Shown here: one piece after another, positions 3,894 to 38,139 of the stretch
How the letters are laid out: each line of letters starts with the position of its first letter
How positions within the stretch are numbered: position 1 is the first letter of the stretch
NCBI GenBank assembly: GCA_012521815.1
Contig: JAAYLR010000030.1
Location: 5,434-69,433, forward strand
Reading direction: 5' to 3'
Source of the DNA: Acidobacteriota bacterium
GTDB lineage: Bacteria > Acidobacteriota > Thermoanaerobaculia > Multivoradales > JAGPDF01
DNA: 64,000 bases
Notes under the pieces: generated by a model
The model's input: the letters and a program-made list of their open reading frames with translations, nothing else
What the model was told of the DNA's origin: nothing
The model's database searches: none
Program-made: the position numbers and the translations under genes

Positions 3894-4658
3894 ATGGCGG
3901 ACGAACCCGGGATCACCGGCGCCGCGGCCGTTCTGCGCACCGCGCGGCGCGTGCTCGCGTTCACCGGCGCGGGGATCTCGGTGGCGAGCGGGATCCCGCC
4001 GTTCCGCGGCGAAGACGGCCTCTGGACGCGCTTCGACCCGTCGTCGCTCGCGCTGGACACCTTCCTCGACGACCCCGCCGCCGCCTGGCGGTTCCTGAAC
4101 GAGATCTTCTACCTCCCGCTCGCGGGAGCGGCGCCGAACCCGGCCCACCGGGCGCTCGCGTCGCTCGAGCGGGCCGGGCGCCTCGCGGCGGTCGCGACCC
4201 AGAACGTGGACGGCCTCCACCGCGCCGCCGGCAGCCGCCGGGTCCACGAGCTCCACGGCACCCTCCGGCGGCTCCGCTGCCTCGCCTGCGAGGCGGTCTC
4301 CGCCCTCGCCGACTCCGGTCTCGGCGAGCTGCCGCCGACCTGCCGCCTCTGCGGCGGGATCCTCCGCCCGGAGATCGTCTTCTTCGACGAAGGGCTCGCC
4401 GAGCCGGCGCGCAGCGACGCCTTCGCCGCGGCCGCGGGCTGCGATGCGATCCTCGTCGTCGGCACCTCGGGGGAGGTGCTGCCGGCCGGTCTCCTCCCCT
4501 GGACCGCCGCCGAGCAGGGGGCCACCGTCATCGAGATCAACACGGTTCCGTCGGCCTACACCGAACCCCTCACCGACCTCTTCCTGCAGGGCTCCGCGAC
4601 GGCGCTCCTGCCGCGCCTCGCCGCCGCCCTCGACCTCGCTCCGCCGCCGGCGGAGTGA
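3894..4658 (+). CDS. cobB: NAD-dependent protein deacetylase, Sir2 family (CobB-like)
   Basis: Sirtuin motifs are present in order: GAGISVASGIPPFRG, QNVDGLH, HG(T), and the CxxC...CxxC zinc pair (CLAC...CRLC). Start is the ATG at 3894 inside the longer ORF 3561..4658. Confidence 0.85.
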   Translation: MADEPGITGAAAVLRTARRVLAFTGAGISVASGIPPFRGEDGLWTRFDPSSLALDTFLDDPAAAWRFLNEIFYLPLAGAAPNPAHRALASLERAGRLAAVATQNVDGLHRAAGSRRVHELHGTLRRLRCLACEAVSALADSGLGELPPTCRLCGGILRPEIVFFDEGLAEPARSDAFAAAAGCDAILVVGTSGEVLPAGLLPWTAAEQGATVIEINTVPSAYTEPLTDLFLQGSATALLPRLAAALDLAPPPAE

Positions 4659-4669
4659 CCGGAGGCGCC

Positions 4670-7351
4670 ATGAGCGTCCACAACCTCGGCCGGATCTTCG
4701 ATCCGAAGCGGATCGCCCTCGTGGGCGCCTCGCCCAACCCGAACAGCGTCAGCGGCAAGGTGCTCTCGAACCTCGTCACCGGCGGCTTTCCCGGCGTCGT
4801 CTACCCCGTCCATCCGACCCAGGAGGCGGTGCTCGGGATCCCCTGCTTCCCCGACGTCGCGAGCCTGCCGCGGGTGCCCGAGCTCGCGATCGTCTGCACC
4901 CCGGCCGAACAGGTGCCGGCCGCCGTCACCGCCTGCGGCGAGGCCGGGATCCTCGGCCTGATCGTGATGTCCGCCGGCTTTCGCGAGACGGGCGAGGCGG
5001 GGCGGGCGCTCGAACAGGAGGTGCGCGCCGCGCACGCCCGCTTCCCCGGGATGCGGATCCTCGGGCCGAACTGCCTCGGGGTGATCGTCCCGCGCCGCAA
5101 CCTCAACGCCAGCTTCGGCCCCGCGATGCCGCGCGACGGCCAGATCGCCTTCCTCTCGCAGTCCGGAGCGCTCTGCACCTCGGTGCTCGACTGGGCGCGC
5201 GACGAGCGTGTCGGCTTCTCCCACTTCGTCTCGCTCGGCAACGCCCTCGACGTCGGCTTCGGCGATCTCATCGACTACTTCGGCGAGGACGAGAAGACCC
5301 GCTCGATCCTGCTCTACATCGAGTCGGTCAGCCGGGCGCGGGCGTTCATGACCGCCGCACGCGCCTTCGCCCGCACCAAGCCGATCCTCGCCTTCAAGGC
5401 CGGGCGCTTCCCGACGTCGGCCGCGGTCGCCGCCTCGCACACCGGCGCGATGGCCTCGGAGGACGCGGTCTACGACGCCGCCTTCGAACGGACCGGGATC
5501 GCCCGCGTCTTCGATCTCGGCGACGTCTTCGACTGCGCCGCGCTGGTAGGCCGCAGCCGGATGCCGCACGGCCCCCGCCTCGGCATCGTGACCAACGCCG
5601 GCGGCCCCGGCGTGGTGGCGACCGACGCCCTCGTCGCGGCCGGCGGCGAGCTCGCCACGCTCGCGCCCGCCACGCTCGCCGCGCTCGACGACTGCCTCCC
5701 GCCCGCCTGGTCGCACGGCAACCCGGTGGACGTCCTCGGCGACGCCGGCTCGCGGCGGCTCGAGAAGGCGGTCGAGGCGGTGCTCGCCGACCCCGGCGTG
5801 GACGCGCTGCTCGTGATCCTCACCCCCCAGGCGATGACCAACCCCACCGGCGCCGCGAAGGTGCTCGCGCGGCTGGCGGAGAAGAGCCCGAAGCCGGTGC
5901 TCGCCGCCTGGCTCGGCGGCCAGGCGATGCGCGAGGGGGCCGGCATCCTCGCCGAGGCCGGGGTGGCCGCCTACCAGACCCCCGAGCAGGCGGTGCGCGC
6001 CTTCATGACCCTCGTCGCCTACGCCCGCAACCTCGAGATCCTCTACGAGACGCCGAAGGACGTGGCGATCGAGCTCCCGTTCGACCGCGCCGAGGCGAAG
6101 CGCGCCTTCGTCGCCCGCGCGATCGCCGGCGCCGGCACCCTCTCCGAGGAGAGCTCGAAAGAGCTCCTCCACGCCTACGGGATCCCGGTCGTGCGCGCGC
6201 GGCCGGCGGCCGACGCCGCGGCGGCGGTGGCGCTCGCCGAGGAGCTCGGCTACCCGGTGGTGCTCAAGATCCACTCCCCCGACATCACCCACAAGACCGA
6301 CGTCGGCGGCGTCGCCCTCGACCTGGGCAGCGCGGAGATGGTCACCGCCGCCTTCGATCAGATCGTGCGCAACGCCCGCGAGCGGCGGCCGGAGGCGCGC
6401 CTCGCGGGAGTGACCGTGCAGCGGATGGTGCAGGCGCGCGACGGGGTGGAGCTGATCCTCGGCGTGAAGCGCGACGCGGTCTTCGGCACGGTGATGATGG
6501 CCGGCATGGGCGGGATCGGCGCCGAGCTGCTCGGCGAGCGCAGCCTCGGCTTCCCGCCCCTCAACGAGCGGCTCGCGCGCCGGATGCTCGAGAAGCTCCG
6601 GCTCTGGCCGCTCCTCGCCGGCTACCGGGGCCGGCCGCCGGTCGATCTCGACCGGCTCGTCGCGGTGCTCATCCGCCTCTCCTACCTCGCCGCCGACTAC
6701 CCGGAGATCGCCGAGCTCGACATCAACCCGCTGCTCGTGAGCCCCGGCGAGGTGATCGCGCTCGACGCCCGGGTGGTGCTCGATCGCGCCCCCGACGGCG
6801 CGCTCGACGAGGCGTACCCGCACCTCGTCCTCCGCCCCTACCCCGAGCGGCTGGTCCGGCGGGCGGTGCTGCGCGACGGCACGCCGGTGACGCTGCGGCC
6901 GATCAAGCCCGAGGACGAACCGCTCTGGCACGCGATGCTCGCGAGCTGCTCGCGCGAGTCGCTCTACTCGCGCTTCCGCTCGCACTACAACTGGGCGACC
7001 CACGAGGCCGCGACCCGGCACTGCTACATCGACTACGCGCGGGAGATCGCGATCGTCGCCGAGGTCGAGGAGCGGAGCGAGCGGCGGCTCGTCGGGGTCG
7101 GGCGGCTGATCGCCGACCCCGGGCACGAGGAGGCCGAGTACGCGGTGCTGGTGATCGACGCCTTCCAGAACCGCGAGCTCGGCTCGCTGCTCACCGACAC
7201 CTGCATCGAGGTCGCCCGTGGCTGGCAGTTGCGGCGGCTGGTGGCCGAGACCGACACCACGAACCGGGCGATGATCGCGGTCTTCGCGAAGCGGGGTTTC
7301 GAGATCCGCACCGGCGAGGACTCGACCGTCGAGGTCTCGCTCCCGCTCTGA
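4670..7351 (+). CDS. pat: protein lysine acetyltransferase Pat (acetyl-CoA synthetase (ADP-forming)-like domains + C-terminal GNAT)
   Basis: 893 aa. The N-terminus has a CoA-binding / succinyl-CoA-synthetase-like fold (VGASPNPNSVSGKV..., ATP-grasp) and the C-terminal ~200 aa is GNAT. GGAGG precedes the ATG at 4670. An alternative GTG at 4655 overlaps the cobB stop (GTGA). Confidence 0.85.
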   Translation: MSVHNLGRIFDPKRIALVGASPNPNSVSGKVLSNLVTGGFPGVVYPVHPTQEAVLGIPCFPDVASLPRVPELAIVCTPAEQVPAAVTACGEAGILGLIVMSAGFRETGEAGRALEQEVRAAHARFPGMRILGPNCLGVIVPRRNLNASFGPAMPRDGQIAFLSQSGALCTSVLDWARDERVGFSHFVSLGNALDVGFGDLIDYFGEDEKTRSILLYIESVSRARAFMTAARAFARTKPILAFKAGRFPTSAAVAASHTGAMASEDAVYDAAFERTGIARVFDLGDVFDCAALVGRSRMPHGPRLGIVTNAGGPGVVATDALVAAGGELATLAPATLAALDDCLPPAWSHGNPVDVLGDAGSRRLEKAVEAVLADPGVDALLVILTPQAMTNPTGAAKVLARLAEKSPKPVLAAWLGGQAMREGAGILAEAGVAAYQTPEQAVRAFMTLVAYARNLEILYETPKDVAIELPFDRAEAKRAFVARAIAGAGTLSEESSKELLHAYGIPVVRARPAADAAAAVALAEELGYPVVLKIHSPDITHKTDVGGVALDLGSAEMVTAAFDQIVRNARERRPEARLAGVTVQRMVQARDGVELILGVKRDAVFGTVMMAGMGGIGAELLGERSLGFPPLNERLARRMLEKLRLWPLLAGYRGRPPVDLDRLVAVLIRLSYLAADYPEIAELDINPLLVSPGEVIALDARVVLDRAPDGALDEAYPHLVLRPYPERLVRRAVLRDGTPVTLRPIKPEDEPLWHAMLASCSRESLYSRFRSHYNWATHEAATRHCYIDYAREIAIVAEVEERSERRLVGVGRLIADPGHEEAEYAVLVIDAFQNRELGSLLTDTCIEVARGWQLRRLVAETDTTNRAMIAVFAKRGFEIRTGEDSTVEVSLPL

Positions 7352-8547: not shown

Positions 8548-9165
8548 TCAGGAGCGTTCGAGGAGCGCGAGCAGCTTCTCGCCGTTCACCCCGGCAGGGA
8601 GTCTCTCGGCGAAGCCGAGGAGGGCGGCGAGGCGGGCGGCGAGCTGACGCTCGGCCTCCCGGAGCGCCAGCTTCGCCTGCGCGAGCCGCTCCTTCGCCGG
8701 ACGCATCCACTGCTCCTGGAACTCCTTGCCGGAGAGGGTGCCGTCGCGGATCCGCTGCCGGCCCTCGCGGCGGATCGTGTCGAGATGCCGGCTCGCCGCC
8801 GCGGCCTCCAGAGCGATCGGCGCCGTCTCCCATCGCCACCCCGTGTGCACCGCCACCACCTCGCCCCGCTTCGCGAGCGCGCGCCGCACGAGCTCCACCC
8901 CCGCCGCGACGAGCGCGGCCACCTCGCGCTCGCCATCCGCGGTGAGGCTCCCGTCCTCCGCCCACCGCTTCCGGGAGAGCGCGAAATAGGGGATGTGCGA
9001 GCTCGCGAGGCGCAGCGGCCATGGCCGCTCGATCTCGACACCGAGATCGGACGCGCAGGCGCGCACCCTGCCCTCCACCTCCAGCTCACCGACCTGCTGC
9101 CGCAGCGCTACCTCCACCCACTCCGGTCCTCCGGAACCGTTCTCACGCGCTTCGTTCGCCGCCAT
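8548..9165 (-). CDS. hypothetical protein (205 aa)
   Basis: Clean ORF with an AGGAGG SD 6 nt upstream of the ATG at 9165. Third positions are GC-biased. I recognise no domain. Confidence 0.55.
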   Translation of the reverse strand: MAANEARENGSGGPEWVEVALRQQVGELEVEGRVRACASDLGVEIERPWPLRLASSHIPYFALSRKRWAEDGSLTADGEREVAALVAAGVELVRRALAKRGEVVAVHTGWRWETAPIALEAAAASRHLDTIRREGRQRIRDGTLSGKEFQEQWMRPAKERLAQAKLALREAERQLAARLAALLGFAERLPAGVNGEKLLALLERS

Positions 9166-9503: not shown

Positions 9504-9992
9504 CTAGCTGCTGGCCAGCAGGCGCTGACGGGTGTACGGGATGAGGCCGCCGGCGTCGATGATCGCCTGCCGGGCCGGGGGAAGCGGCACGGTGGCGAAG
9601 CGCTTGCCGGTGGTCTGGTTGAGGATGCTCCCGCTCTCGAGCACGAGCTCGTCTCCCTCGTCCGCCTCCAGCTCCGGCGCGGTGACGAGCGAGAGGCCGA
9701 GGTTGATCGCGTTCTGCAGGAAGATGCGGGCGAAGCCGCGCGCCACGATCGTCAGCTCGTGCCCGCGCAGGCAGGAGGCCGCCTGCTCGCGCGAGGAGCC
9801 GCAGCCGAAGTTCTTCCCGCCGACGATCGCCGCGCCCTTGCCGGCGCCCGACTTGAGCAGCGCGTTGAGCTCCGGCGCGTCGGCGAAGGCGAACTGCGGG
9901 GTCTCGGTGGGGAGCACGGTCGCCATGAAGCGGCCGGGGTAGATGACGTCGGTCGAGATGTCGTCGCCGACCTTCGCGATGACCTTGAGCAT
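9504..9992 (-). CDS. leuD: 3-isopropylmalate dehydratase / aconitase-family small subunit (LeuD-like, short archaeal type)
   Basis: 162 aa, MLKVIAKVGDDISTDVIYPGRF...GKNFGCGSSREQA, typical LeuD swivel domain. GGGAG SD. Start is 2 nt after the leuC stop. Confidence 0.85.
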   Translation of the reverse strand: MLKVIAKVGDDISTDVIYPGRFMATVLPTETPQFAFADAPELNALLKSGAGKGAAIVGGKNFGCGSSREQAASCLRGHELTIVARGFARIFLQNAINLGLSLVTAPELEADEGDELVLESGSILNQTTGKRFATVPLPPARQAIIDAGGLIPYTRQRLLASS

Positions 9993-9994
9993 GA

Positions 9995-11284
9995 TCAGGC
10001 TCCCTGACGGGGGTCGGTGATGACCCCGGTGATCGCCGAGGCGGCGGCGACTTCGGGCGAGCAGAGGTAGACCTCCGTCTTCGGGTTCCCCATCCGCCCC
10101 TTGAAGTTCCGGTTCGTGGTCGAGAGCGCGACCTCGTGGTCGCCGAGCGCGCCCTGGTGGATGCCGAGGCAGGGGCCGCAGCCGGAGTTCATGACCACCG
10201 CGCCCGCCTTCATCAGCGTCGCGACGTAGCCGGCTTCGAGCGCCTCCTGGTAGATCCGGCCGGAGGCCGGGAAGACGAGCATCCGCGTCTCCCGCGCCAC
10301 CTTCTTGCCTTCGAGGATCCGCGCCGCGGCGGCGATGTCGTCGAGCCGCCCGTTCGTGCACGAACCGATGACGATCTGGTGGACCTTCGTCCCCGCCACC
10401 GCGTCGATCGGCTTGACGTTGTCGACGGTGTGGGGGCAGGCGATCTGCGGCGCGAGCCGGGAGACGTCGACGTGCACCGTGCGCTCGTAGACGGCGTCGG
10501 GATCGGGGCCCACGAGCTCGAGCTCGTCCTCCACCCCGGCGACCTCGCGCAGGTAGCGGACCGTCTCCTCGTCGGCGGGGACGATCCCCGAGGTCGCGCC
10601 GGCCTCGACGGTCATGTTGCAGATCGTGAGCCGTCCGGAGGTCGGCATCCTCCGGATCGTCTCGCCGCCGAACTCGATCACCCGGAAGTTCGCCCCCTCG
10701 GCGCCGAGCAGCCCGACGAGGTGGAGGATCAGGTCCTTCGCGCCGACCTCCGGCGGGAACTCGCCCGTCACCTCGACCCGGATCGTCGGCGGCACCTCGA
10801 TGTTGAGGGCGACACCGAGCGTCCAGACCGAGGCCATCTCGGTCGCGCCGATCCCGAAGGCGAAGGCGCCGAGCGCGCCGTGGCTGGTGGTGTGGGAGTC
10901 GGTGCCCACGACCACCGCGCCGGGGCGCACGTAGCCGTTTTCGGGCAGGATCTGGTGGCAGATCCCCCCCTCGTCGCCGCGGATGTCATGGAACCGCCCG
11001 ATCCCGTGCAGCCCGACGAACTCCCGGACCTTCTTCTGGTTGCTCGCCGTCTTGGCCGACTCGGCCGGCACCCGGTGGTCGAAGATGATGGCGAGGCGCG
11101 ACGGATCCCAGATCCGCGGCTCGCGCCCGGTCCCTTCGAAGACGGCGTGGAACTGATTGACGACCAGCGCCGCGTTCTCGTGCGACATCGCGAGATCGAC
11201 GCGCGGCTCCAGCACCTCGCCCACCCGCACGCTTTCGCGCCCCGCGGCGCGGGCAAGGATCTTCTCGACAACGGTCATGCCCAT
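9995..11284 (-). CDS. leuC: 3-isopropylmalate dehydratase / homoaconitase large subunit (LeuC-like)
   Basis: 429 aa aconitase catalytic domain with VGTDSHTTSHGALGAFAFGIG and the Fe-S cysteines (SCTNGR, GCGPCLG). AGGAGA SD upstream of the ATG at 11284. Confidence 0.85.
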   Translation of the reverse strand: MGMTVVEKILARAAGRESVRVGEVLEPRVDLAMSHENAALVVNQFHAVFEGTGREPRIWDPSRLAIIFDHRVPAESAKTASNQKKVREFVGLHGIGRFHDIRGDEGGICHQILPENGYVRPGAVVVGTDSHTTSHGALGAFAFGIGATEMASVWTLGVALNIEVPPTIRVEVTGEFPPEVGAKDLILHLVGLLGAEGANFRVIEFGGETIRRMPTSGRLTICNMTVEAGATSGIVPADEETVRYLREVAGVEDELELVGPDPDAVYERTVHVDVSRLAPQIACPHTVDNVKPIDAVAGTKVHQIVIGSCTNGRLDDIAAAARILEGKKVARETRMLVFPASGRIYQEALEAGYVATLMKAGAVVMNSGCGPCLGIHQGALGDHEVALSTTNRNFKGRMGNPKTEVYLCSPEVAAASAITGVITDPRQGA

Positions 11285-11364
11285 CTCAGTTCGTCTCCTA
11301 TCCTGCGGTCGTTACCCGATCCACGAGATAACCGCACGCACGCAACGTTCTTTCCGCCTCTCTC

Positions 11365-12561
11365 TCAGACGACGCCCTGCGCGCGGAGGTCGGCGATCTC
11401 GGCCGCGCTCAGGCCGAGGCCGCCGAGCACTTCGTCGGTGTGCTGGCCGAGCTTCGGCGGCGGCGCGGTGATCGCGCCCGGCGAGTCGGAGAGCTTGGCG
11501 GTCATGTTGAAGAGCTTCACCTCCCCGATCTCGTCGTCCACCCGCACCGAGGTGAGCGTCCGCCGGTGTTCGACCTGCGGCTGGGAGAGCGCCTCGGCGA
11601 GCGAGAGGATCGCGCCGGAGGGCACGTCCTTGGCGTTGAGCGCCTCGACCCAGTGGGCCGTCGGCCGCTCGGCGAGCTTCGCCTCGAGCAGCGGCGTGAG
11701 CGCCTTGCGGTTCTTCTTCCGCTCGTCGCGCTCCTGGAAGCGGGGGTCGCTCTTCAGCTCGGGCAGCTCGAGCACCTCGGTGACCGCCTCCCACTGCTCC
11801 TGCTTGTTCGCGGCGATGTTGATGAAGCCGTCGCCGGTGCGGAAGACGCCCGAGGGCGCGGCGGTGAAGTTGTCGTTGCCCATCGGCACCGGGCCCTTGC
11901 CGCCGATCAGCAGGTTCGCCGCCACCCAGCCCATCAGCGGCATGATCGAGTCGAGCAGCGCGACGTCGATCGCCTGCCCCCGGCCGGTGCGCTCGCGGTG
12001 GAAGAGCGCCGCCATGATCGCGAAGGCGGCGTTGAGCCCGCCCACCGTGTCGCAGACCGGGAAGCCGGCGCGCAGCGGATGGAGCCGCTCGTCGCCGTTG
12101 ACGTCCATCTCCCCGGAGAGCCCCTGGATGATCTGGTCGTAGGCGGGCTTGGCGGCATCCGGGCCGTCCTTGCCGAAGCCGGAGATCCCGCAGTAGACGA
12201 GCCGCGGGTTGATCTCGGCGAGCGCCTCGTAGCCGAGGCCGAGCCGGGGCATGACGTCGGGGCGGAAGTTCTCCACCACCACGTCCGCGCCGGCCACCAG
12301 CCGCCGGAAGAGCTCCTTGCCCGCCGGCGCCTTGAGGTTGAGGGTGAGCGACTTCTTGTTCGCGTTCTGGGCGAGGAAGCTCGTGCCCATCAGCTGCTTG
12401 TTGTACGCGGGCACGTTGCCGAGCACCCGCGCGAGATCTCCCGCCTTCGGGTTCTCCACCTTCACCACCTCGGCGCCGAGCAGCGCGAGGTGGAGGGTGC
12501 AGAACGGCCCCGAGAGGACGTTGGTCAGATCGAGGACTCGAATGCCATCGAGGACGCCCAT
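11365..12561 (-). CDS. family III CoA-transferase (CaiB/BaiF family)
   Basis: 398 aa, MGVLDGIRVLDLTNVLSGPFCTLHLALLGAEVVKVE is the family hallmark. GGGAGGGAG SD. Start overlaps the upstream gene's stop region. Confidence 0.85.
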   Translation of the reverse strand: MGVLDGIRVLDLTNVLSGPFCTLHLALLGAEVVKVENPKAGDLARVLGNVPAYNKQLMGTSFLAQNANKKSLTLNLKAPAGKELFRRLVAGADVVVENFRPDVMPRLGLGYEALAEINPRLVYCGISGFGKDGPDAAKPAYDQIIQGLSGEMDVNGDERLHPLRAGFPVCDTVGGLNAAFAIMAALFHRERTGRGQAIDVALLDSIMPLMGWVAANLLIGGKGPVPMGNDNFTAAPSGVFRTGDGFINIAANKQEQWEAVTEVLELPELKSDPRFQERDERKKNRKALTPLLEAKLAERPTAHWVEALNAKDVPSGAILSLAEALSQPQVEHRRTLTSVRVDDEIGEVKLFNMTAKLSDSPGAITAPPPKLGQHTDEVLGGLGLSAAEIADLRAQGVV

Positions 12562-12563
12562 CT

Positions 12564-13493
12564 TCAGCTCCCTCCCGCCGCGGCGGCCGGCTCCGGGATC
12601 GGGCCGGCGCGATAGACGTTGCCCGGCATCTCGCGGCCGCAGCAGGCGGCCACCTCGCGCGCCACGTCGAGCAGCACCGCGAGATCGATCTCGCGGCGCT
12701 CGCCGCCGCGCTGCAGGGCGTGCACGAGATCCTCGGTGCAGGTGTTCCCGCCGGCCACCGCGGTGAACGGGCAGCCGCCGAGACCGGCCACCGAGGCCTC
12801 GAAGTGGGTGACCCCGGCCCGCCGCGCGGCGTAGCAGTTGGCGAGCGCGAGGCCGTAGGTGTCGTGGAAGTGACAGGCGCAGTCGATCCCCGGCGCGAGC
12901 GCGAAGACCGCCTCGTAGAGCGCCTCGACGGCGTCCGGGGTGCCGTGGCCGGCGGTGTCGGCGAGGCTCAGGTTGCGCAGCCCCGCGTCGAGGAACGAGC
13001 GGACGATGCCGAGCACCCGCTCGCGCGGCACCGGCCCCTCGTACCCGCAGCCGAAGGCCGACTGCACGGAGACCTGCACCCGCTTGCCCGCCGCCGCGGC
13101 CGCCTGCGCCATGGCGATGATCCGGCCGGTCGCGTCGGCGATGCTCATGCCGGTGTTCTTCCGGCTGTGCGTCTCGCTCGCCGAGACCCCCATGCAGAAC
13201 ATCTCGACGCCGCACTCGAGCCCCCGCTCCAGCCCCTTCTCGTTGAGCACCAGCCCCGAGAGGGTCGCGGACGCGGGCTTGCGCCCCGGCTGCGTGAAGT
13301 GCTGAAAAAGCTCGGCGGTGTCGGCCATCTGCGGCACCCGGTCGGGGCGCACGAACGAGCCGAGCTGGAGGATGTCGACGCCGCTGGCGAGCAGCCGCTC
13401 GCCCCAGGCGATCTTCTGCGCCGTGGGCACGACCTGCTTCTCCATCTGCAGGCCGTCGCGCAGTCCGACCTCGTGCAGGACGATCTGGCTCAC
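12564..13493 (-). CDS. HMG-CoA lyase-like (HMGL family; possibly citramalyl-CoA lyase) protein
   Basis: 309 aa TIM-barrel HMGL-like: VGLRDGLQ near the N-terminus and the conserved H.H metal site (CACHFHDTYG). GTG start at 13493 with GGAGG 6 nt upstream. Confidence 0.8.
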   Translation of the reverse strand: MSQIVLHEVGLRDGLQMEKQVVPTAQKIAWGERLLASGVDILQLGSFVRPDRVPQMADTAELFQHFTQPGRKPASATLSGLVLNEKGLERGLECGVEMFCMGVSASETHSRKNTGMSIADATGRIIAMAQAAAAAGKRVQVSVQSAFGCGYEGPVPRERVLGIVRSFLDAGLRNLSLADTAGHGTPDAVEALYEAVFALAPGIDCACHFHDTYGLALANCYAARRAGVTHFEASVAGLGGCPFTAVAGGNTCTEDLVHALQRGGERREIDLAVLLDVAREVAACCGREMPGNVYRAGPIPEPAAAAGGS

Positions 13494-13506
13494 GGAACGC
13501 CTCCGT

Positions 13507-14625
13507 TCAGAGCTTCGCCGCGATGGCGCGGCCGAGATCGAGGGTGGTGGCGCTGCCGCCCATGTCGTAGGTGCGGACCTGCCCCTCGGCGATCACCGCC
13601 GCGGTCGCCGCCTCGATCCGGCCCGCCATCTCCGTCTCGCCGAGCCAGTCGAGCATCATCTTCGCGGCGAGGATGGTGGCGATCGGGTTGACCTTGTACA
13701 TCCCCGCGTACTTCGGCGCCGAGCCGTGCGAGGGCTCGAAGACGCCGAGCTTCGTGCCGATGTTGCCCGAGCAGCCGAAGCCGAGGCCGCCGACCATCTG
13801 CGCCGCGAGGTCGGAGATGATGTCGCCGTAGAGGTTCGGCGCCACGAGCACCTCGTAGGAGAGCGGGTTCTTCAGCAGCCACATGCAGATCGCGTCGATG
13901 TTCGCGTCGTCGCAGGCGATCTCCGGGTAGTCGGCGGCGACCTTGCGGGCCATCTCGAGGAAGAGCCCGTCGGTGGCGCGCACCACGTTCGCCTTGTGGA
14001 TGATCGTCACCTTCTTGCGGCCGTGCTTGCGGGCGTACTCGAACGCCGCCCGTGCGATCCGCTCCGAGCCGTGGCGGGTGTTGATCTTGCACGAGATCGC
14101 GTACTCGTCGAGGGCGCGGCCGGCGAACGGCTTGAACGCCGGGGCGTTGCGGCCGAGCACCTCGGCCACCTCGGCCGGCACCGGCGAGAACTCGACGCCG
14201 GCGTAGAGGTCCTCGGTGTTCTCGCGGAAGACCACGAGGTCGATCCCCTCGCGCAGGTTGAGCGGGTTGCCCGGATACGCCTTGCAGGGGCGCAGGCAGG
14301 TGTAGAGATCGAACAGCTGCCGCATCCGCACGATCGGCGAGCGGTACTTCAGCCCCTTGCCCTGCAGCTCGGGGACGAGCTCGGCCTCGGCGGTCTTCGC
14401 CGGCTTCGAGGTGATGGCGCCGAACATCGCGGCGTCGACGCGGCCGAGCAGGTCCACGGTGCGCTGCGGGAAGGCGTCTCCCTCCCGGCACCAGAACTCC
14501 CAGCCGATGTCACCATGTTCGTAGTCGGCCCGGAAGCCGACGGCGTCGAGCACGAGGCGGGTCGCTTCGAGGACTTCGATGCCGATTCCATCTCCGGGCA
14601 GCCAGGCGATCTTGTAGCTCTTCAT
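13507..14625 (-). CDS. isocitrate/isopropylmalate dehydrogenase family protein (LeuB-/tartrate-DH-like)
   Basis: 372 aa from the ATG at 14625 (MKSYKIAWLPGDGIGIEV...NLYGDIISDLAAQMVGGLG). This is a beta-decarboxylating dehydrogenase signature. The ORF 13507..14790 is over-extended. Confidence 0.85.
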   Translation of the reverse strand: MKSYKIAWLPGDGIGIEVLEATRLVLDAVGFRADYEHGDIGWEFWCREGDAFPQRTVDLLGRVDAAMFGAITSKPAKTAEAELVPELQGKGLKYRSPIVRMRQLFDLYTCLRPCKAYPGNPLNLREGIDLVVFRENTEDLYAGVEFSPVPAEVAEVLGRNAPAFKPFAGRALDEYAISCKINTRHGSERIARAAFEYARKHGRKKVTIIHKANVVRATDGLFLEMARKVAADYPEIACDDANIDAICMWLLKNPLSYEVLVAPNLYGDIISDLAAQMVGGLGFGCSGNIGTKLGVFEPSHGSAPKYAGMYKVNPIATILAAKMMLDWLGETEMAGRIEAATAAVIAEGQVRTYDMGGSATTLDLGRAIAAKL

Positions 14626-14788
14626 GGATTCGCTCCGCAGGGGTTGGTGGCCCGTCCGGCCACCGGGGTCGGGCCGCTTCGGCGGCCGGAAACAGGCTAT
14701 CCGCCGGACGTTGCGCCGTCGCCACCCCGCCGGGCGGGAGGCATACAATGCCCTCGACTCTGAACCGCGACCGCGGAGGCGGAACACC

Positions 14789-17700
14789 ATGCGAGCGAAC
14801 TGTCAGAGCAGTGCCGGGAGAACCCTGTCCGGCCTCGGGGGGATCCTCCTCCTCTCCCTCCTTCCGGGCCTCGCCACCGGCGCCGGAGCGGCCCCTCCCG
14901 AGGTGCTCCCCGGCCGGGTCCCGGCGGCGGGGGAGCAGGCGGTGACGGTGCGGGTCGCCGCGCTCGGACGCTACGCGCTCGCCGTCGAGAGCCTCCAGGG
15001 GGTGGCGCTCACCCACGTCGACCGGCTCGCGGGGGAGGTCGCAACCGCCGGCGAGGCCGGGGAGGCCGACGGCCGCCTCGATCTCTTCCTGGAGCCGGGG
15101 GAGATCCGGGTGCGTACCCGGGGGCCCGAGCTCGGCCGCGGGGAGGCCCGGCTCACGCTCACCCCGTTCCGCGAGCTCCACGGCAACGCCCTGCCGCACC
15201 TGACGGCCACCGCGCAACTCTCCACCGAGCTCGGCGACCACGAGCAGCGCTCCTGGTGGGTGGAGGCCGTCGCGGGCGAGCCGCTCCTCGCCGAGGCCGC
15301 CGGCCGCCATCTCGCCGACCTCCGCCTCTGGCAGGGGGGCGACTGGCTCCTGCCCGCCCTCCCGGTCTGCGAGCCGATCGAGCCGGTGGCGGGACGGCCG
15401 CTCACCCGCTGCCGCCTGCAGGCCGAGCTGCCGCCGGGGCGCTACCGGCTGAGCGCCTACGGCGGCCCGGGCCTCGCCTGGGCGCGGGCGGGCGGCGAGC
15501 GCCCGCTCCACCTCCGGCTCGGCACCTCGCGCCGGGCCGAAGCGGGGCGCGAGCGGCTCACGATCGGCCCGTTCGGCAGCGAGCGCTTCGTGCTGCCGGG
15601 GAGCACCACCTTCGCCCGGATCGAGCTCCCCGCGCCGGGGCGCGCCACCCTCCGGTTCGGCGACTACGAGCCCGACGCGCCGTTCGCGGCGCCGTGGCGG
15701 ACGGCCGAGATCGACGAGGAGACGCTCGCGCCGGTCGTCGAGCTGCGGCGCCGGGAGACCGACGGCGAAGCCCTTCTCGAGATCGAAGGGATTCCCGGGC
15801 AGGAGCTCGTCTGCGAGCACCTCCGCGTCGCCCGCAAGGCGCCGGTCACCGGCGCCGGGCCGCACTGGGTCGGAAGCGTCCACGCGGGCACCGCGGCCGA
15901 CGCGATCGACGCCACCGGCCTCCTCGTCCTGGAGGTCCCCGACGGCGCCCCCCGCCTCCTCGCCGCCCGGACGGTCGAGCTCGGCGGCGACGGCGTCTGG
16001 CACCGCCGCTTCCAGCTCGACGACACGGCGACGCTCTTCCTCCACGTCGCGGAGCCGGGCAGCTGGGAGCTGACCACCGCCGGCGTCGCCGTCGAGGCCC
16101 GGATCGAGCCGTTCCTCCTCTCGCCCCCCGCCAACTACCGGCCACCGGCGCTCCGCGAGACCCCGCTCTCGTGGGAGCTCGACCGCGGCTACTGGGTCCT
16201 CACGCTGCGCCCCGTGCGGCGCGGCATCGTGACGGCGGCGCTCCATCCGGCGGGCACCCCGGTGCCGGCGGCGTTCACCGCTCCCCTGCCGGCGGTGCGG
16301 CTCGGTGCGGTCGACCTCGACCCCGAATCGGCCTACACCCTCTGGCTCAACGAGCAGCCGGACGTCGCCGTCGGACCGGTCGCCCGGCCGCTGCCGCTCG
16401 ACCTCGCCGCGCCGCTGCCGCTCGCCCTGCGCCCCGGCGAGGAGATCGAGCTCCCGGTGCTCGTCCCGGCGCCCGGCCACCTGCGGGCGGTCGTCGAGGA
16501 CGGCTCGGCGTGGGAGCTCTCCCTCGACGGCGCCCCCTGGACGCTCGAACCCGGGGTGAGCCCGGGCACGGGAGCGCTGCGAGTCCGCTCGACCTCCGCG
16601 GCGAGCCTCTCGGCCTCGCTCGCTCTCGTCCCGGACGCGGTGGCCGGCGCACCGGCCACCGCACTGGCCGCGCCGCCGCCGCTCCTCGCCGAGAGCCTCT
16701 CCCTCACCCTCGCCCGCCACGAAGGGCGGAGCTTCCGCCTGCCCGTCACCCGCGCCGGGCTCTACACGTTCGAGTCGACCGGGCTGCTCGCCACCGCGGG
16801 GAGCCTGCGGGGGCGGGTGCTCGCGCCGTTCGCCTTCGGGATGGAGAACGGCACCGGCCGGAACTTCCGCCTCGCCGCCTGGCTCCCCGAGGGGGAGTAC
16901 CAGCTCCAGGTCGAGAGCCTCGGCGAGAGCGCCGGGCCGGCCGGGCTGCGCTGGCGCCGCGGCGAGCTGCGCGACGGCGGCGAGCTGCTGCCTGCGGTGA
17001 GCGCCCGCGCCGAGCTCGGCGCCGGGGAGGGGATCGTCTGGCGGTTCGACGTTCCGGAGCCGGGGCGGTACGAGGTCGAGGCCCGGCGCGCCGGCCGGCC
17101 GGCGCCGTTCCGGCTGGAGGATCCGGAAGGGTTCCCCGTCGGGGAGGCGCTCGCCGAGGGGATGGCGGAGGTCCGGCTCACCCCGGGCTCCCACCGCCTC
17201 CTCGTGCTCGGCGATGACGCCGCCGGGCCGCTCGTCGTCCGGCTCGAGCGTCACGACGAGCCGGCGGCCGCCACCGGCCACGGACCGCACCCGCTGCCGC
17301 TCGGCGTGACGCGCGAGCACCTCTGGCGCGAGCCGGAAGGAGAGGCGAGCGAAGCCTCCGAGCGGCCGCCCGACCGGTGGCGCTTCACCCTCCCCGCCCC
17401 CGCCGAGGTCATCCTCACCCTCGACCCCGAGATGACCGGCACCCTCCTGCGGCCGGGCGCCGCGGCGGACGAACCGCTCCCGGCCGCGCGGCCGCTCTCC
17501 CTCCGGCTCGCCGCCGGCGAGCACGAGCTCCGCCTCCGTGCCGGCACCCCCGACGATCTGCGCCCCTACGAGCTCAGGATCGACCCGGTGCCGCTCCTCG
17601 CCGGCCTCGAGCGGGAGCTGACGGCTCCCGGCGAGGTCGAGGTCGCGGTCGGTGCGGCCGGCAGCTATCTCCTCGAATCGCGCGGCGAGGCCGACCTCCG

Positions 17701-20014
17701 GGCCCGGCTCCTCGACGCCGGCGGACGGGTGGTCGCCGCGGGGGACGACCGCCCCGGCGACTGGAACTTCCAGCTCGCGCTGCCGCTCGTGGCCGGCCGG
17801 TACCGGCTGCAGGTCGATCCGGTCGGCGGCGAGCCGGCCCGGAGCCGGGTGGCGATGCGTGCTCTCCCCGAGCGCGAGGAGGGCAGCTGGAATGCCGCCG
17901 GCGAACGACGGGTCACCCTCGGCGAAGAGGCGCTCGTCCTCCCCCTCGCGCTCCCGGCGCGGGCGGAGCTGCTCGCCGTGGCCGCCCGCTCGGAGAGCGC
18001 CGTCGGCCTGCGCCTCGACCGGCGCGACGGCGACGGCTGGCGGGAGGTGGCGGCCGCCGACGGCCCCGGGGCGCTCCTCGCCGTGCCGCTCGGCGAGAAA
18101 GCGCCGCTCCGGCTCCGCCTGCTCGGGCTCGACCGCCGGCCGGCGGCGGTGACCCTCCACGGCTTCGCCGGACCGCTCCGCGAGCTCCGGGAGCGTGATC
18201 TCGCGCGTGGGGTGACGCTGCCGGTACTCGCCGGCTTCTCCCCGCCGCTCGCCGCCGCCACGCTCCGGCTCGAGCGCCCGGGCGCCCTGCGCCTCTCGGG
18301 GCAACCGGCAGCGCTGCTCGCGAGCGGCGAGCCGCTCGCCTCGCTCACCTTCGCCGGCGACCTCCTCGTCGCGACCGGAAACCGCCTCTGGGTCGCCGCG
18401 GCGGGCGGCGGGGCGCCCCGGCTCACCGCCACCCGCGCGACGGCGGGAAGTGAGGGTCTCACCCTGTCCCTCACCCCGGACGGCCGCGCGGCCTGCGATC
18501 TCGCGAACCCCGAAGCGCTGCGCTGGGTGGAGGCGACCGCCCCCGCCGGGACCCTCCTCGTGAACACGGCTCTGGCGGACGGCAGCCGCCGCTGGGATCG
18601 CGCGAGCGCCCCCGGCCGCGCGGGCGCCGCGACGGTCGCCCAGCCCGGCGACCGGACGGCGTTCGTGCGGAGCGAAGGGTCGCTCTCCCCCTCGGTACAG
18701 CTGAAGTCGACACCGCTCGCGCTCGCCCCCGCCGTCGAGCTCGCTGCCGGAGAGAGCCGTCTTCTCGAGCTTCCCGCCGGCGGCGGCCGGGAGCTCCGGC
18801 TCCCGGCCGGGCGGTGGCGCCTCGCGCTCGCCCTCGAACGCGGCGCCGCGCTCGCGCTCGGCGACGCGGCCACCCCGGAGGCGCTCGTCCGCGCCGAGGA
18901 AGAGCACCACGCCGAAAGCCTCCTGACGTCGGCCCGGCGGGCGCTCGCGCTCAACCCGACCGGCGCGGCGCGCCAGCTCCGGATCGCCCTCGAACCCCTC
19001 CTCCCCGGCGAGGAGACCGCCGCCCGCCTCGGGCCCGACGGGCGGCTGGAGCTCCTCGCCCCCGGCGCCGGCACCCTCCGCCTCGACCTCCCCCCGGCGA
19101 GCTGCCCGGTCACCCGGCTGCGCGTCGCCGGCGCCACGGCGCTCCTCGTCGCCGCCGACGGCAGCCTCCAGCACGGCCCCGAGCTGCGCTGGCCCGCGGT
19201 GGGCGGCACGCTCCGGCTCCGGCACGACGCCGGCCCGGTGGCCCTCTGGCCCGCCGCCGGCGACCCCGCCGCGCTCGGCTTCTCCCCGGCGCCTGCCGCC
19301 ACCCCGCTCGCCTCCCGGACGCGTCTCGCGGGGGGTGCCGAACAGCGGCTCACGCTGCCCACCGGAGCCCCCGCGCTCCTCGCGCTCCACGGCCCGGCAC
19401 CGCTCTTCGCCGCCCTCGTGACCGCCGACGGCATGGTGGGCTGGGCCGGCCTCCTCGCGCCGGGCACGGCCGCCGTCCTGCCGGTGCCGGACGGCGGCGG
19501 CGAGCTCCGCCTCCGGGGGCTCGCCGGCGCGCCGCTGCCGGCGGGGGTCGAGATCGCCCTCGCCCCGGTGACGCCGCTCGGCGACGGCCTCGGCGAGGAG
19601 CGGCTCCTCGCCCCCGGCGAGGCGCACGGCTACACCTTCACCCTGGAGACGGCCCGCCGCGTCGGGCTCGGGGTGCGGAGCGACAGCGGCCGGGTGGAGG
19701 GCACGCTCTTCGCCGCCGACGGCCGCACGCTCGCCGCGGGCGGCCTCCTCTGGGAGGAGCTGCCGGCCGGCCGCTACCTCTTCGCGCTCCAGCTCTCCCC
19801 GGCCGCCCCCGCCGCCCTCGCCGCGCCGGTGGCCGTGGGGCTCACCCCCGCCGGGCTCGCCCCGCCGCCGGCCGCCGAGCTTGCCCGGCTGCGCGAGCTC
19901 GCCGCCGCGCCCGACCCGCCGCCCCCCGGGGCGATCGCCGGCGAGATCGCCTGGCCCCTGACCGGCATCCCGAGCGAGTCCGACGAACCGACCTCCGAGG
20001 AGAGCGACCGATGA
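14789..20014 (+). CDS. giant secreted repeat protein (1741 aa) of unknown function, first gene of the A2M-PBP1C operon
   Basis: GGAGG SD plus the ATG at 14789. Signal peptide MRANCQSSAGRTLSGLGGILLLSLLPGLATGAGA. There are at least eight [PA]GxYx[LV]-type ~100-aa modules (PGRYRLSA, PGSWELTT, AGLYTFES, EGEYQLQV, PGRYEVEA, AGSYLLES, AGRYRLQV, AGRYLFAL). No thioester or catalytic motif. The stop overlaps the next start (ATGA at 20011-20014). Confidence 0.7.
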   Translation: MRANCQSSAGRTLSGLGGILLLSLLPGLATGAGAAPPEVLPGRVPAAGEQAVTVRVAALGRYALAVESLQGVALTHVDRLAGEVATAGEAGEADGRLDLFLEPGEIRVRTRGPELGRGEARLTLTPFRELHGNALPHLTATAQLSTELGDHEQRSWWVEAVAGEPLLAEAAGRHLADLRLWQGGDWLLPALPVCEPIEPVAGRPLTRCRLQAELPPGRYRLSAYGGPGLAWARAGGERPLHLRLGTSRRAEAGRERLTIGPFGSERFVLPGSTTFARIELPAPGRATLRFGDYEPDAPFAAPWRTAEIDEETLAPVVELRRRETDGEALLEIEGIPGQELVCEHLRVARKAPVTGAGPHWVGSVHAGTAADAIDATGLLVLEVPDGAPRLLAARTVELGGDGVWHRRFQLDDTATLFLHVAEPGSWELTTAGVAVEARIEPFLLSPPANYRPPALRETPLSWELDRGYWVLTLRPVRRGIVTAALHPAGTPVPAAFTAPLPAVRLGAVDLDPESAYTLWLNEQPDVAVGPVARPLPLDLAAPLPLALRPGEEIELPVLVPAPGHLRAVVEDGSAWELSLDGAPWTLEPGVSPGTGALRVRSTSAASLSASLALVPDAVAGAPATALAAPPPLLAESLSLTLARHEGRSFRLPVTRAGLYTFESTGLLATAGSLRGRVLAPFAFGMENGTGRNFRLAAWLPEGEYQLQVESLGESAGPAGLRWRRGELRDGGELLPAVSARAELGAGEGIVWRFDVPEPGRYEVEARRAGRPAPFRLEDPEGFPVGEALAEGMAEVRLTPGSHRLLVLGDDAAGPLVVRLERHDEPAAATGHGPHPLPLGVTREHLWREPEGEASEASERPPDRWRFTLPAPAEVILTLDPEMTGTLLRPGAAADEPLPAARPLSLRLAAGEHELRLRAGTPDDLRPYELRIDPVPLLAGLERELTAPGEVEVAVGAAGSYLLESRGEADLRARLLDAGGRVVAAGDDRPGDWNFQLALPLVAGRYRLQVDPVGGEPARSRVAMRALPEREEGSWNAAGERRVTLGEEALVLPLALPARAELLAVAARSESAVGLRLDRRDGDGWREVAAADGPGALLAVPLGEKAPLRLRLLGLDRRPAAVTLHGFAGPLRELRERDLARGVTLPVLAGFSPPLAAATLRLERPGALRLSGQPAALLASGEPLASLTFAGDLLVATGNRLWVAAAGGGAPRLTATRATAGSEGLTLSLTPDGRAACDLANPEALRWVEATAPAGTLLVNTALADGSRRWDRASAPGRAGAATVAQPGDRTAFVRSEGSLSPSVQLKSTPLALAPAVELAAGESRLLELPAGGGRELRLPAGRWRLALALERGAALALGDAATPEALVRAEEEHHAESLLTSARRALALNPTGAARQLRIALEPLLPGEETAARLGPDGRLELLAPGAGTLRLDLPPASCPVTRLRVAGATALLVAADGSLQHGPELRWPAVGGTLRLRHDAGPVALWPAAGDPAALGFSPAPAATPLASRTRLAGGAEQRLTLPTGAPALLALHGPAPLFAALVTADGMVGWAGLLAPGTAAVLPVPDGGGELRLRGLAGAPLPAGVEIALAPVTPLGDGLGEERLLAPGEAHGYTFTLETARRVGLGVRSDSGRVEGTLFAADGRTLAAGGLLWEELPAGRYLFALQLSPAAPAALAAPVAVGLTPAGLAPPPAAELARLRELAAAPDPPPPGAIAGEIAWPLTGIPSESDEPTSEESDR

Positions 20015-35587: not shown

Positions 35588-36508
35588 TCAGAAGAGCGGA
35601 CCCGGCCCGAGGAGCAGCCCCCAGAGCGGGAGGGTCAGGAGGGAGACGAGAACCCCGAATCCGGCGAGCGCCGCGGCGAGCTCCGGCGCGAGCCGGTGCA
35701 GGCTCGCCAGGGCGGCGGCGGTGACCATCGGCGGCATCGCGCTCTCCAGCACCGCCGCCGCCGCCGGCAGCGGTGCGAGCCCGAGGGGCCGCACGAGGAG
35801 CAGGGCGAACGCCGGCAGGACGACGAGCTTGAGCAGGAGCCCCGCCGCGAGGGGTGCCCGCACCGTCCGCGGCAGCCGGAGCCGGAGCTGGAGCCCCAGC
35901 GCGAACGCCACCACCGGCAGGAGCGCTCCCGCGAGCTGGTCGAGCAGGCTGGCGACGACCGGCGGCGGGTCCGCCGGCATCAGCGTGAGCGCGAAGAGCA
36001 GCGCCGGAAACGGCGGGAAGCGGAGCAGCCGCCGGAGGAGCGCCCGCGCCGAGAGCGGTTCGCCGCCGCCGTAGCGGGCGAGCACCCAGAACCCCCACGT
36101 CGTGAGGAGGATGAACGAGCCGAACTGGTCGTACGCCACCGCGTACGGCAGGGCGTCGCGGCCGAGCAGCGCCGCGGTGAGCGGGTAGCCGAGGAACGAG
36201 GTGTTGCCGAGCGGCGCGCAGAGCAGCAGCACCGCCCGCTCGGCCGGCGCCAGCCGCAGCGCCCGGGCCACGAGGTGGACGAGCCCGGCGGTGGCGAGCA
36301 GGAGGAGCCACGGGATCGCCACGAGCCCGAGCAGGGACGGCTCGGGCCGCAGCCCCGCGGCGTGGCGCAGCACGGCGGCGGGCAGGCAGACGTAGAGGAC
36401 GAAGAGGTTGAGCGCGTCGGCCCCGGCGGCCGGGAAGGCGCCGAGCCGCGCCGTGAGCTTGCCGGCGGCGAAGAGGCAGAGGATGAGGACGAAGGCGTCG
36501 AGTGCCAT
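35588..36508 (-). CDS. AEC (auxin efflux carrier) family transporter
   Basis: 306 aa, about 10 predicted TM helices, typical AEC family layout. It lies 18 nt downstream of the decarboxylase gene on the same strand. Confidence 0.8.
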   Translation of the reverse strand: MALDAFVLILCLFAAGKLTARLGAFPAAGADALNLFVLYVCLPAAVLRHAAGLRPEPSLLGLVAIPWLLLLATAGLVHLVARALRLAPAERAVLLLCAPLGNTSFLGYPLTAALLGRDALPYAVAYDQFGSFILLTTWGFWVLARYGGGEPLSARALLRRLLRFPPFPALLFALTLMPADPPPVVASLLDQLAGALLPVVAFALGLQLRLRLPRTVRAPLAAGLLLKLVVLPAFALLLVRPLGLAPLPAAAAVLESAMPPMVTAAALASLHRLAPELAAALAGFGVLVSLLTLPLWGLLLGPGPLF

Positions 36509-36526
36509 GGACGGCGGCGCGAAACC

Positions 36527-38002: not shown

Positions 38003-38076
38003 CTCAGCCTCCCCCGCGGGCGCTCGCACCCGCCTGCTCGGGATCATCTCACCGCTGCCCGCGTTCACATCGCCCA

Positions 38077-38116: not shown

Positions 38117-38139
38117 GCATCGGCAGCGCCGGTCGCGGC

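Follow-up and report, generated by a model that had tools for sequence, protein, structure and literature searches.

A conserved lyase, CoA-transferase and LeuCD/LeuB-like gene cassette of Acidobacteriota and other phyla as a candidate CoA-dependent route of 2-oxoacid elongation

The closest described counterpart of the gene set considered here is a pair of enzymes of Chloroflexus aurantiacus, Ccl (EC 4.1.3.46) and Sct (EC 2.8.3.20), which together interconvert (R)-citramalate, its coenzyme A (CoA) ester, and acetyl-CoA plus pyruvate. Friedmann and colleagues are said to have described, in 2006/2007, the (R)-citramalyl-CoA lyase of Chloroflexus as a 34-kDa member of the 3-hydroxy-3-methylglutaryl-CoA (HMG-CoA) lyase family lying beside a 44-kDa family III succinyl-CoA:D-citramalate transferase; both were reportedly examined as cleaving enzymes, and the revision of the 3-hydroxypropionate bi-cycle reportedly left open what they do in the cell. 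A review has pointed out that EC 4.1.3.46 and EC 2.8.3.20 could on paper make (R)-citramalate (PMC8307300). Here, we analyze a 64,000-nt stretch of an Acidobacteriota genome (contig JAAYLR010000030.1, positions 5,434 to 69,433; hereafter the window), in which positions 9504-14625 of the minus strand hold a five-gene cassette where, by description, the same kind of partnership recurs, with a lyase of the HMG-CoA-lyase family beside a family III transferase (309 and 398 aa, with a 4-nt overlap), preceded by a dehydrogenase and followed by a LeuCD-like isomerase. Our literature search found no report in which Ccl/Sct are associated with an NADP-type dehydrogenase and a dedicated isomerase of the LeuCD-like kind, and full-text searches likewise returned no paper linking citramalyl-CoA chemistry to a LeuCD/LeuB-type cassette.

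Two familiar modules share the overall carbon chemistry that we propose for this cassette, namely the citramalate pathway (CimA, LeuCD, and LeuB; methanogens, Leptospira, and Geobacter) and the leucine module (LeuA, LeuCD, and LeuB), which also employ an archaeal-type LeuCD and a beta-decarboxylating dehydrogenase. Unlike them, the cassette has no synthase, and condensation and CoA release would be split between the lyase and the CoA-transferase; an NADP-type motif and an additional insertion mark its dehydrogenase, and none of its three Leu-like proteins belongs to a curated equivalog. The same logic, in which CoA or acyl-carrier-protein transfer plus a lyase stands in for a synthase, underlies the CitDEF-type citrate/citramalate lyase and the citryl-CoA synthetase and citryl-CoA lyase of the reductive tricarboxylic acid (TCA) cycle, but these systems belong to unrelated families (CitE/CitF, succinyl-CoA-synthetase- and citrate-synthase-like) and act on tricarboxylates or (S)-citramalate. 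All the enzymes of the cassette come from known families, and the reaction sequence as a whole is a variation on a pathway already known. Our reading is that it may perform a CoA-dependent, synthase-free one-carbon elongation of 2-oxoacids, with pyruvate to 2-oxobutyrate as the most likely flux; we hold this view at slightly less than even confidence, the substrate, the CoA acceptor, the direction, and the role being those that we infer from the evidence below.

All five genes are co-directional on the minus strand and supported by Pfam, which confirms the operon of leuB/leuC/leuD-type genes, HMGL-like lyase, and family III CoA-transferase that a sequence-only reading of this DNA had described. 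From first to last, they encode a 372-aa dehydrogenase (13507-14625; PF00180, Iso_dh, 293 bits), a 309-aa lyase (12564-13493; PF00682, HMGL-like, 134 bits), a 398-aa CoA-transferase (11365-12561; PF02515, CoA_transf_3, 417 bits), a 429-aa LeuC-like large subunit (9995-11284; PF00330, Aconitase), and a 162-aa LeuD-like small subunit (9504-9992; PF00694, Aconitase_C). Their successive junctions are a 13-nt gap, a 4-nt overlap (12561-12564), an 80-nt gap, and a 2-nt gap; the spacings reported earlier (overlapping starts at 12561/12564, 13 nt, and 80 nt before leuC) match these open reading frame (ORF) coordinates. As the window has about 74% G+C, frames were picked by their third-position G+C content (GC3), and the values of 0.94-0.95 found for the five cassette frames indicate that these are real reading frames.

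To assess how widely this layout is kept, the lyase was scanned against one genome per species and all five proteins were mapped onto the best 80 loci. Complete five-gene loci accounted for 54 of these 80, with the order dehydrogenase-lyase-transferase-LeuC-LeuD in every one of the 54, and a further 17, interrupted by contig ends, are consistent with the same layout. The upstream dehydrogenase is missing in nine loci, seven of which have sufficient downstream sequence and consist of lyase and transferase only; the lyase-transferase pair itself is kept in 75 of the 80. The carrier genomes bear the labels Acidobacteriota, Bacteroidota, Ignavibacteriota, "Chlorobiaceae", Verrucomicrobiota, Gemmatimonadales, Calditrichota, Chloroflexota, and, in a few cases, Pseudomonadota (about eight phyla), and their copies are 61-93% identical to the window proteins, with medians (67-76%, the LeuC-like subunit reaching 76%) that are unusually high across phyla; proteins identical or 90% identical to those of the window occur in metagenome-assembled genomes (MAGs) labelled Thermoanaerobaculia or Acidobacteria. 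Such an arrangement is far beyond chance, and because the lyase and the transferase are co-conserved in a fixed order, they are integral to the unit and not chance inserts. Public annotation does not recognize the cassette, and cluster look-ups gave generic names only.

The concatenated distance tree of the cassette mostly tracks taxonomy and the five genes have the same GC3 as their neighbors, from which the cassette appears old, central, and mainly vertically inherited; recent horizontal transfer, considered as a source of the high identity, is disfavored by the same two observations. As for the lower G+C content of the operon region (70-71% over 10001-14000, vs. 74-81% in the flanking 2-kb bins), the unchanged GC3 implies that it reflects the amino-acid composition of highly conserved proteins and not a foreign origin.

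When all the flanking ORFs of the surveyed loci were clustered, no general flanking partner emerged, with the single exception of a VOR-type three-subunit 2-oxoacid:ferredoxin oxidoreductase that adjoins the cassette in 13 Bacteroidota/Ignavibacteriota loci (L023, L028, L029, L031, L040, L043, L046, L054, L059, L065, L073, L083, and L084), lying in some loci upstream on the cassette strand and in others downstream in convergent orientation. With 554 bits against a cut-off of 399, its alpha subunit is placed in the VorB subfamily, and this neighbor would tie the cassette to short or branched 2-oxoacids. Two candidates for a sixth conserved component were rejected, namely the downstream 189-aa ORF at 8548-9117, which has no homolog in any locus, and a 190-aa membrane protein of unknown family that lies between the VOR genes and the dehydrogenase in only six Bacteroidota loci.

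At the level of the individual enzymes, the lyase has the catalytic equipment of its family: Arg12/Asp13, His208/His210, Asn250, and Cys241 align to solved HMG-CoA lyases (Arg41/Asp42, His233/His235, Asn275, and the Cys266 loop of the human DRE-TIM-fold enzyme) and are conserved in representatives. HMG-CoA lyase (EC 4.1.3.4; human HMGCL, Pseudomonas aeruginosa LiuE, and Bacillus subtilis YngG) shares with it the fold, the catalytic residues, and about 40-45% identity, 2FTP, 1YDO, and 2CW6 being its best solved relatives. However, in 81 of 81 cassette lyases a glutamine (Gln43) takes the place of human Glu72, the Glu of the Asp-Arg-Glu signature, a position that was fixed by counting residues in the lyase alignment and that is Glu in all four solved HMG-CoA lyases. 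The cassette enzyme is further set apart from HMG-CoA lyase by its family III transferase partner and by its surroundings, as neither the window nor the 80 loci revealed any leucine-catabolism gene (methylcrotonyl-CoA carboxylase, methylglutaconyl-CoA hydratase). A comparison with bona fide HMG-CoA lyases, which the sequence-only reading had called for, came out in the same sense: in a search against 50%-identity representatives followed by a neighbor-joining tree, the cassette lyases form a separate deep clade, at most 45% identical to the former and with the invariant Gln. By analogy with Ccl, we propose that this protein is an (R)-citramalyl-CoA or, more broadly, 2-alkylmalyl-CoA lyase acting as a condensing enzyme.

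Its partner is a family III (CaiB/Frc-type) transferase with its catalytic Asp intact in the motif FPVCDTVGG. It scores below all equivalogs (305 vs. 750 for succinate-glutarate transferase, 248 vs. 700 for mesaconate transferase), its best solved relatives, at about 260 bits, are 10uh (deposited as a formyl-CoA transferase) and human SUGCT 9BR6 (succinate-hydroxymethylglutarate CoA-transferase), and its public names are generic and mutually inconsistent. Here too, analogy with the Chloroflexus pair suggests a succinyl-CoA:(R)-citramalate-type transferase.

With regard to the first gene, the dehydrogenase has the Tyr/Lys/Asp catalytic set, and its closest solved relatives are NAD-dependent isocitrate dehydrogenase (NAD-ICDH) and the homoisocitrate dehydrogenase (HICDH) of Thermus. 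Its best NCBIfam matches (AksF2, 328 vs. 540; LEU3_arch, 306 vs. 410) fall short, as does leuB TIGR00169 (196 vs. 353), and no equivalog, including those for ICDH, reaches its cut-off. In alignments with Thermus HICDH and with the ICDH encoded in the window itself, it retains Ser113 and replaces Asn115 by Ile (Escherichia coli ICDH numbering; Ser113 and Asn115 bind the gamma-carboxylate), has Val99 at the position of HICDH Arg85 and an Arg at the Ala117 position, and carries a 13-aa insertion before the specificity loop; Ser113, the Ile, Val99, and the insertion are kept invariantly in 60 orthologs. The motif YRSPIVRMRQ is invariant among 60 sequences, as is HGSAPK[YH]AG; the latter includes the ICDH-type NADP motif HGSAPKY, with Lys305/Tyr306 invariant. 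These residues point to an NADP-type 3-alkylmalate, possibly 3-methylmalate, dehydrogenase. That it is not the TCA-cycle enzyme follows from the presence, 36 kb away in the window, of a bona fide NADP-ICDH (446 aa; NF005425, 705 bits vs. 490) that directly follows AceK (572 aa) on the plus strand at 48799-51911. In its own right, this locus shows that an acidobacterial MAG encodes an ICDH pair with phospho-regulation in the style of E. coli.

Turning to the isomerase, the LeuC-like protein has the three cluster cysteines (GSCTNG, CGPC) and meets the cut-offs of TIGR02086 (IPMI_arch, 510 bits vs. 410) and PRK00402 (543 vs. 385), which makes it the large subunit of an archaeal-type LeuC/HacA-family Fe-S dehydratase; it stays below LEU2 TIGR02083 (440 vs. 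611), HacA_Meth (469 vs. 550), and leuC TIGR00170 (240 vs. 560). The LeuD-like protein lies at the threshold of TIGR02087 (107.3 vs. 108.95) and below leuD TIGR00171 (35 vs. 116) and leud TIGR02084 (112 vs. 246), and its closest solved chain is 3VBA, the small subunit of the Methanocaldococcus jannaschii isopropylmalate/citramalate isomerase. Its substrate loop, IYPGR[YF]MATVLP, is invariant among 59 sequences and places invariant Ala24/Thr25 where M. jannaschii homoaconitase has Arg26/Thr27. Given that HICDH Arg85 and homoaconitase Arg26 bind the distal carboxylate, the loops of the dehydrogenase and of LeuD, with no Asn115, Arg85, or Arg26, favor an uncharged side chain (an alkylmalate) over citrate, isocitrate, or homocitrate. 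That the operon is not simple leucine biosynthesis, as the sequence-only reading had maintained, is borne out by the LeuB, LeuC, and LeuD equivalog scores, which are far under their cut-offs.

Aconitase-family isomerases require a 2-substituted malate and isopropylmalate dehydrogenase (IPMDH)-type enzymes a 3-substituted malate, and because of these substrate needs the sole scheme that uses all five enzymes in series is 2-oxoacid chain elongation or its reverse. In the elongation that we propose, the lyase would work in the condensing direction and join acetyl-CoA to a 2-oxoacid, most likely pyruvate, to give (R)-citramalyl-CoA; the family III transferase would free (R)-citramalate by moving its CoA onto an acceptor, probably succinate, the thioester being kept and not hydrolyzed, in contrast to what happens with CimA or LeuA; the LeuCD-type Fe-S isomerase would convert citramalate, via citraconate, into 3-methylmalate; and the NADP-type dehydrogenase would oxidatively decarboxylate the latter into 2-oxobutyrate, CO2, and NADPH. 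The 2-oxobutyrate would feed isoleucine or propionyl-CoA, and the route would be close to reversible because no step hydrolyzes a thioester. Citramalyl-CoA is preferred as the intermediate because it is the smallest departure from HMG-CoA and has the sole biochemical precedent, that of Chloroflexus Ccl.

The operon had previously been interpreted as a CoA-dependent C5-dicarboxylate conversion pathway. The CoA-dependent part of this idea stands, the lyase and the transferase being integral to the unit and an (R)-citramalyl-CoA lyase with a family III transferase being its best precedent, but a citramalate (C5) substrate is, in silico, inseparable from 2-isopropylmalate. No support was found for an itaconate or mesaconate version, since there is no MaoC/enoyl-CoA-type hydratase, and in the known route for itaconate the (S)-citramalyl-CoA lyases are of the CitE type. 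The notion of a conversion distinct from chain elongation is likewise unsupported, given that the five enzymes form a linear route only as elongation or its reverse.

Several points weigh against an elongation of pyruvate by condensation. In silico, a methyl and an isopropyl side chain cannot be told apart, and the VOR neighbor and the small Ala24 would suit isopropyl at least equally well. Cleavage is the direction known for enzymes of the HMG-CoA-lyase family as well as for Chloroflexus Ccl/Sct, and the lyase has no regulatory domain, whereas the first steps of biosynthetic pathways are usually irreversible and feedback-regulated. IMG names the cassette protein an HMG-CoA lyase, not a citramalyl-CoA lyase; with this lyase above an NCBIfam HMG-CoA-lyase cut-off and the transferase near human SUGCT, HMG may be the substrate of both. 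Finally, there are the nine loci with no adjacent dehydrogenase, including the seven reduced to lyase and transferase. A bolder extension of the elongation reading, which we regard as doubtful, would see in the cassette an ancient and widespread core module that replaces citramalate/isopropylmalate synthase by a lyase and a CoA-transferase, saves ATP, and is thermodynamically reversible, perhaps being the sole isoleucine/leucine route in some hosts and perhaps running in reverse in others to split C4/C6 oxoacids or even fix CO2.

Among the alternatives, one that we find unlikely, if not far-fetched, keeps the enzymology and changes the side chain: 2-oxoisovalerate would be converted, via 2-isopropylmalyl-CoA, 2-isopropylmalate, and 3-isopropylmalate, into 2-oxoisocaproate, so that leucine, or the isovaleryl-CoA that primes iso-branched fatty acids, would be reached independently of LeuA and without sensitivity to feedback, and the cassette might even handle both the methyl and the isopropyl series. 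The pocket formed by Ile98/Val99 in the dehydrogenase is hydrophobic and resembles Leu90/Leu91 of Thermus IPMDH, the small Ala24/Thr25 of LeuD leave room for a bulkier group, and the closest solved LeuD relative accepts both isopropylmalate and citramalate. The VOR-type enzyme, a 3-methyl-2-oxobutanoate:ferredoxin oxidoreductase by name, would fit as well, yet its association with the cassette in the 13 loci is confined to one lineage group; the host phyla are largely rich in iso-C15 lipids, which is suggestive only. Against this substrate, HMG-CoA lyase and Ccl both act on compounds that carry a methyl group on the carbinol carbon, and Ccl is the only characterized relative with an alpha-carboxylate substrate. 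Moreover, no leucine, valine, or fatty-acid genes are linked to the cassette in the window or in the 80 loci, and the rest of the window holds no branched-chain amino-acid genes.

A second alternative, quite unlikely in our estimation, retains the enzymes and reverses the flow, in a catabolic or assimilatory sense: a 2-oxoacid would be reductively carboxylated with NADPH, isomerized, activated with CoA from succinyl-CoA, and cleaved to acetyl-CoA and a shorter 2-oxoacid, the input being leucine-derived 2-oxoisocaproate, 2-oxobutyrate that stems from threonine, methionine, or propionate, or else free citraconate or (R)-citramalate degraded to pyruvate and acetyl-CoA. Such a reversal becomes possible once a lyase and a CoA-transferase take over from an irreversible synthase, as in the citrate cleavage of the reductive TCA cycle; the known members of the lyase family cleave, the invariant Lys305/Tyr306 motif is of the type found in ICDH, which can work reductively, and an adjoining VOR could supply 2-oxobutyrate from propionyl-CoA or clear the shortened oxoacid. 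In related clades, lyase-transferase pairs stand alone or with IclR regulators and MFS/TctC transport proteins, but none of the 54 complete copies has a transporter or a regulator in its core, and the cassette occurs in aerobes and anaerobes alike. We know of no physiological precedent for reductive carboxylation by IPMDH-type enzymes, and the degradation of citraconate or citramalate would leave unneeded a dehydrogenase that is nevertheless the first and among the best conserved of the genes. As a synthetic design, a comparable scheme from 2-oxobutyrate through citramalyl-CoA to pyruvate and acetyl-CoA has been proposed.

It is improbable, in turn, that a genuine HMG-CoA lyase and a succinyl-CoA:3-hydroxy-3-methylglutarate CoA-transferase merely sit among ordinary LeuB/LeuCD proteins with no single pathway between them. 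This possibility draws on the fact that the lyase passes the NCBIfam HMG-CoA-lyase subfamily NF004283 (266.8 bits vs. a cut-off of 246), on the closest solved structures of both proteins (HMG-CoA lyases and human SUGCT), and on the public annotation of the lyase. It is nonetheless at odds with the co-inheritance of five genes in a fixed order across phyla with neither methylcrotonyl-CoA carboxylase nor methylglutaconyl-CoA hydratase, a context that a Glu-type relative does have, as well as with the distinct clade and invariant Glu72-to-Gln change of the lyase, and with LeuB/C/D-like proteins that lie under all canonical equivalog cut-offs and include an NADP-type dehydrogenase. Besides, HMG has no 2-hydroxy-acid (malate) substructure, which aconitase-family isomerases need, and so cannot join the two halves of the cassette. 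Highly improbable, finally, is a tricarboxylate version (a citryl-CoA/homocitryl-CoA lyase and transferase, an aconitase/homoaconitase-like isomerase, and an isocitrate/homoisocitrate dehydrogenase, serving as an alternative TCA entry, for citrate cleavage, or as a 2-oxoadipate route of the lysine or coenzyme-B-like kind), for although the best NCBIfam matches of the dehydrogenase and of LeuC are methanogen homoisocitrate dehydrogenase and homoaconitase models, the solved neighbors of the former are NAD-ICDH and Thermus HICDH, and Ser113, the NADP motif, and an Arg at the Ala117 position are there, the two scores are far under their cut-offs (328 vs. 540, 469 vs. 550), Ile and Val invariantly occupy the positions of Asn115 and Arg85, the LeuD loop has no Arg26, and a standard AceK-controlled ICDH is encoded 36 kb away.

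Beyond the cassette itself, the relatives of its lyase outline a broader picture. When 1.8 billion proteins are clustered at 50%, a single full-length representative stands for all the cassette lyases. The next relative (48-49% identity, locus L086) has the same four partners, with two genes inserted, and a LeuD in which the cassette substrate loop is kept exactly. At 38-44% identity, the distant relatives in two further loci are still Gln-type: in L087 (6815-9677), the arrangement is transferase-lyase-IclR regulator, and in L089 (1-5296), a lyase of 38-39% identity opens the order lyase-LeuC-LeuD-family III transferase, followed by a fifth ORF that was examined as a possible dehydrogenase and proved amidohydrolase-like. 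In view of its different LeuD loop (AGKYTKTL), we treat L089 as a paralogous system and as weak support. Such distant arrangements hint that lyase/transferase modules form a wider family that serves other hydroxy-dicarboxylates, and the occurrence of the lyase-transferase pair alone and in other clades, in some cases with IclR regulators, MFS, or TctC transport proteins, fits a self-contained unit that interconverts a hydroxy-dicarboxylate, its CoA ester, and acetyl-CoA plus an oxoacid. For the Glu-type relative P0256, the setting is a leucine-catabolism cluster of the classical kind, with a carboxyltransferase and an enoyl-CoA hydratase, as well as a family I CoA-transferase. A clean split of Gln- and Glu-type lyases by their CoA-transferase pairing was nevertheless rejected, as the Glu-type P0255 pairs with a family III transferase and TctC and the Gln-type P0261 stands alone. 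A search seeded with the lyase of a Chloroflexota MAG returned Anaerolineales MAGs only.

In the window, the neighbors of the cassette are ordinary chromosomal genes. Upstream and divergent lie three translationally coupled genes on the plus strand (14789-28184), which encode a secreted 1.7-kaa protein (start at 14789, with a signal peptide and no Pfam domain), a 1937-aa bacterial alpha-2-macroglobulin, and PBP1C; in two Thermoanaerobaculia relatives, L001 and L003, the secreted protein likewise occurs upstream of the macroglobulin. The 163-nt divergent intergenic region (14626-14788), a spacing also present in the 90%-identical relative L001, is the presumed promoter region of the operon, in which neither a sigma-70-like site nor an Rfam element was found. 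Within the operon, the transferase-LeuC spacer (11285-11364 from the ORF coordinates, 80 nt) measures 338 nt in the 90%-identical Thermoanaerobaculia relatives L001-L003 (12154-12490 in L001), where no ORF is called; the window copy matches nothing by Rfam and shows no terminator-like site on the minus strand. A regulatory RNA or attenuator upstream of or inside the operon was thus discarded, the best Rfam match having E = 0.3. Downstream of the cassette lie the 189-aa ORF, which is not conserved, and genes for a Memo-like protein, a Pat-type acetyltransferase, and Sir2. The last two form a reversible lysine-acetylation pair (3894-7351, plus strand), in which the gene for the Pat-type enzyme (898 aa, NDP-forming acyl-CoA synthetase domains and GNAT) overlaps the 3' end of that for the Sir2-family deacetylase. 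Farther away, at 35588-40350 on the minus strand, a pyridoxal-phosphate-dependent (group II) amino-acid decarboxylase precedes a Mem_trans/AEC-family permease, with an OPT-family oligopeptide transporter adjoining, and this group may be an amino-acid decarboxylation/export module. A natural-product cluster was also considered, tautomycin-type dialkylmaleic-anhydride clusters having similar enzymes, and was set aside: the large neighboring ORFs encode the secreted protein, the alpha-2-macroglobulin, and PBP1C, and none of them is a polyketide synthase or nonribosomal peptide synthetase gene.

If the elongation reading were true, a very common gene set of Acidobacteriota, Bacteroidota/Ignavibacteriota, Verrucomicrobiota, Gemmatimonadota, and Chloroflexota MAGs, currently labelled "HMG-CoA lyase", "formyl-CoA/CaiB-like transferase", and "LeuBCD", would be misannotated, and automated reconstructions would wrongly infer leucine catabolism from it while overlooking a source of 2-oxobutyrate that depends neither on threonine nor on CimA. 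The cassette, whose hosts are mostly uncultured lineages of soil, sediment, and wastewater, would then offer a natural case in which an irreversible synthase step has been made thioester-conserving and reversible outside the TCA cycle, which would be relevant to energy-limited microbes and to pathway engineering, where related citramalyl-CoA-based cycles are under synthetic design. The orphan lyase/transferase chemistry of (R)-citramalyl-CoA in Chloroflexus may likewise find its physiological role here.

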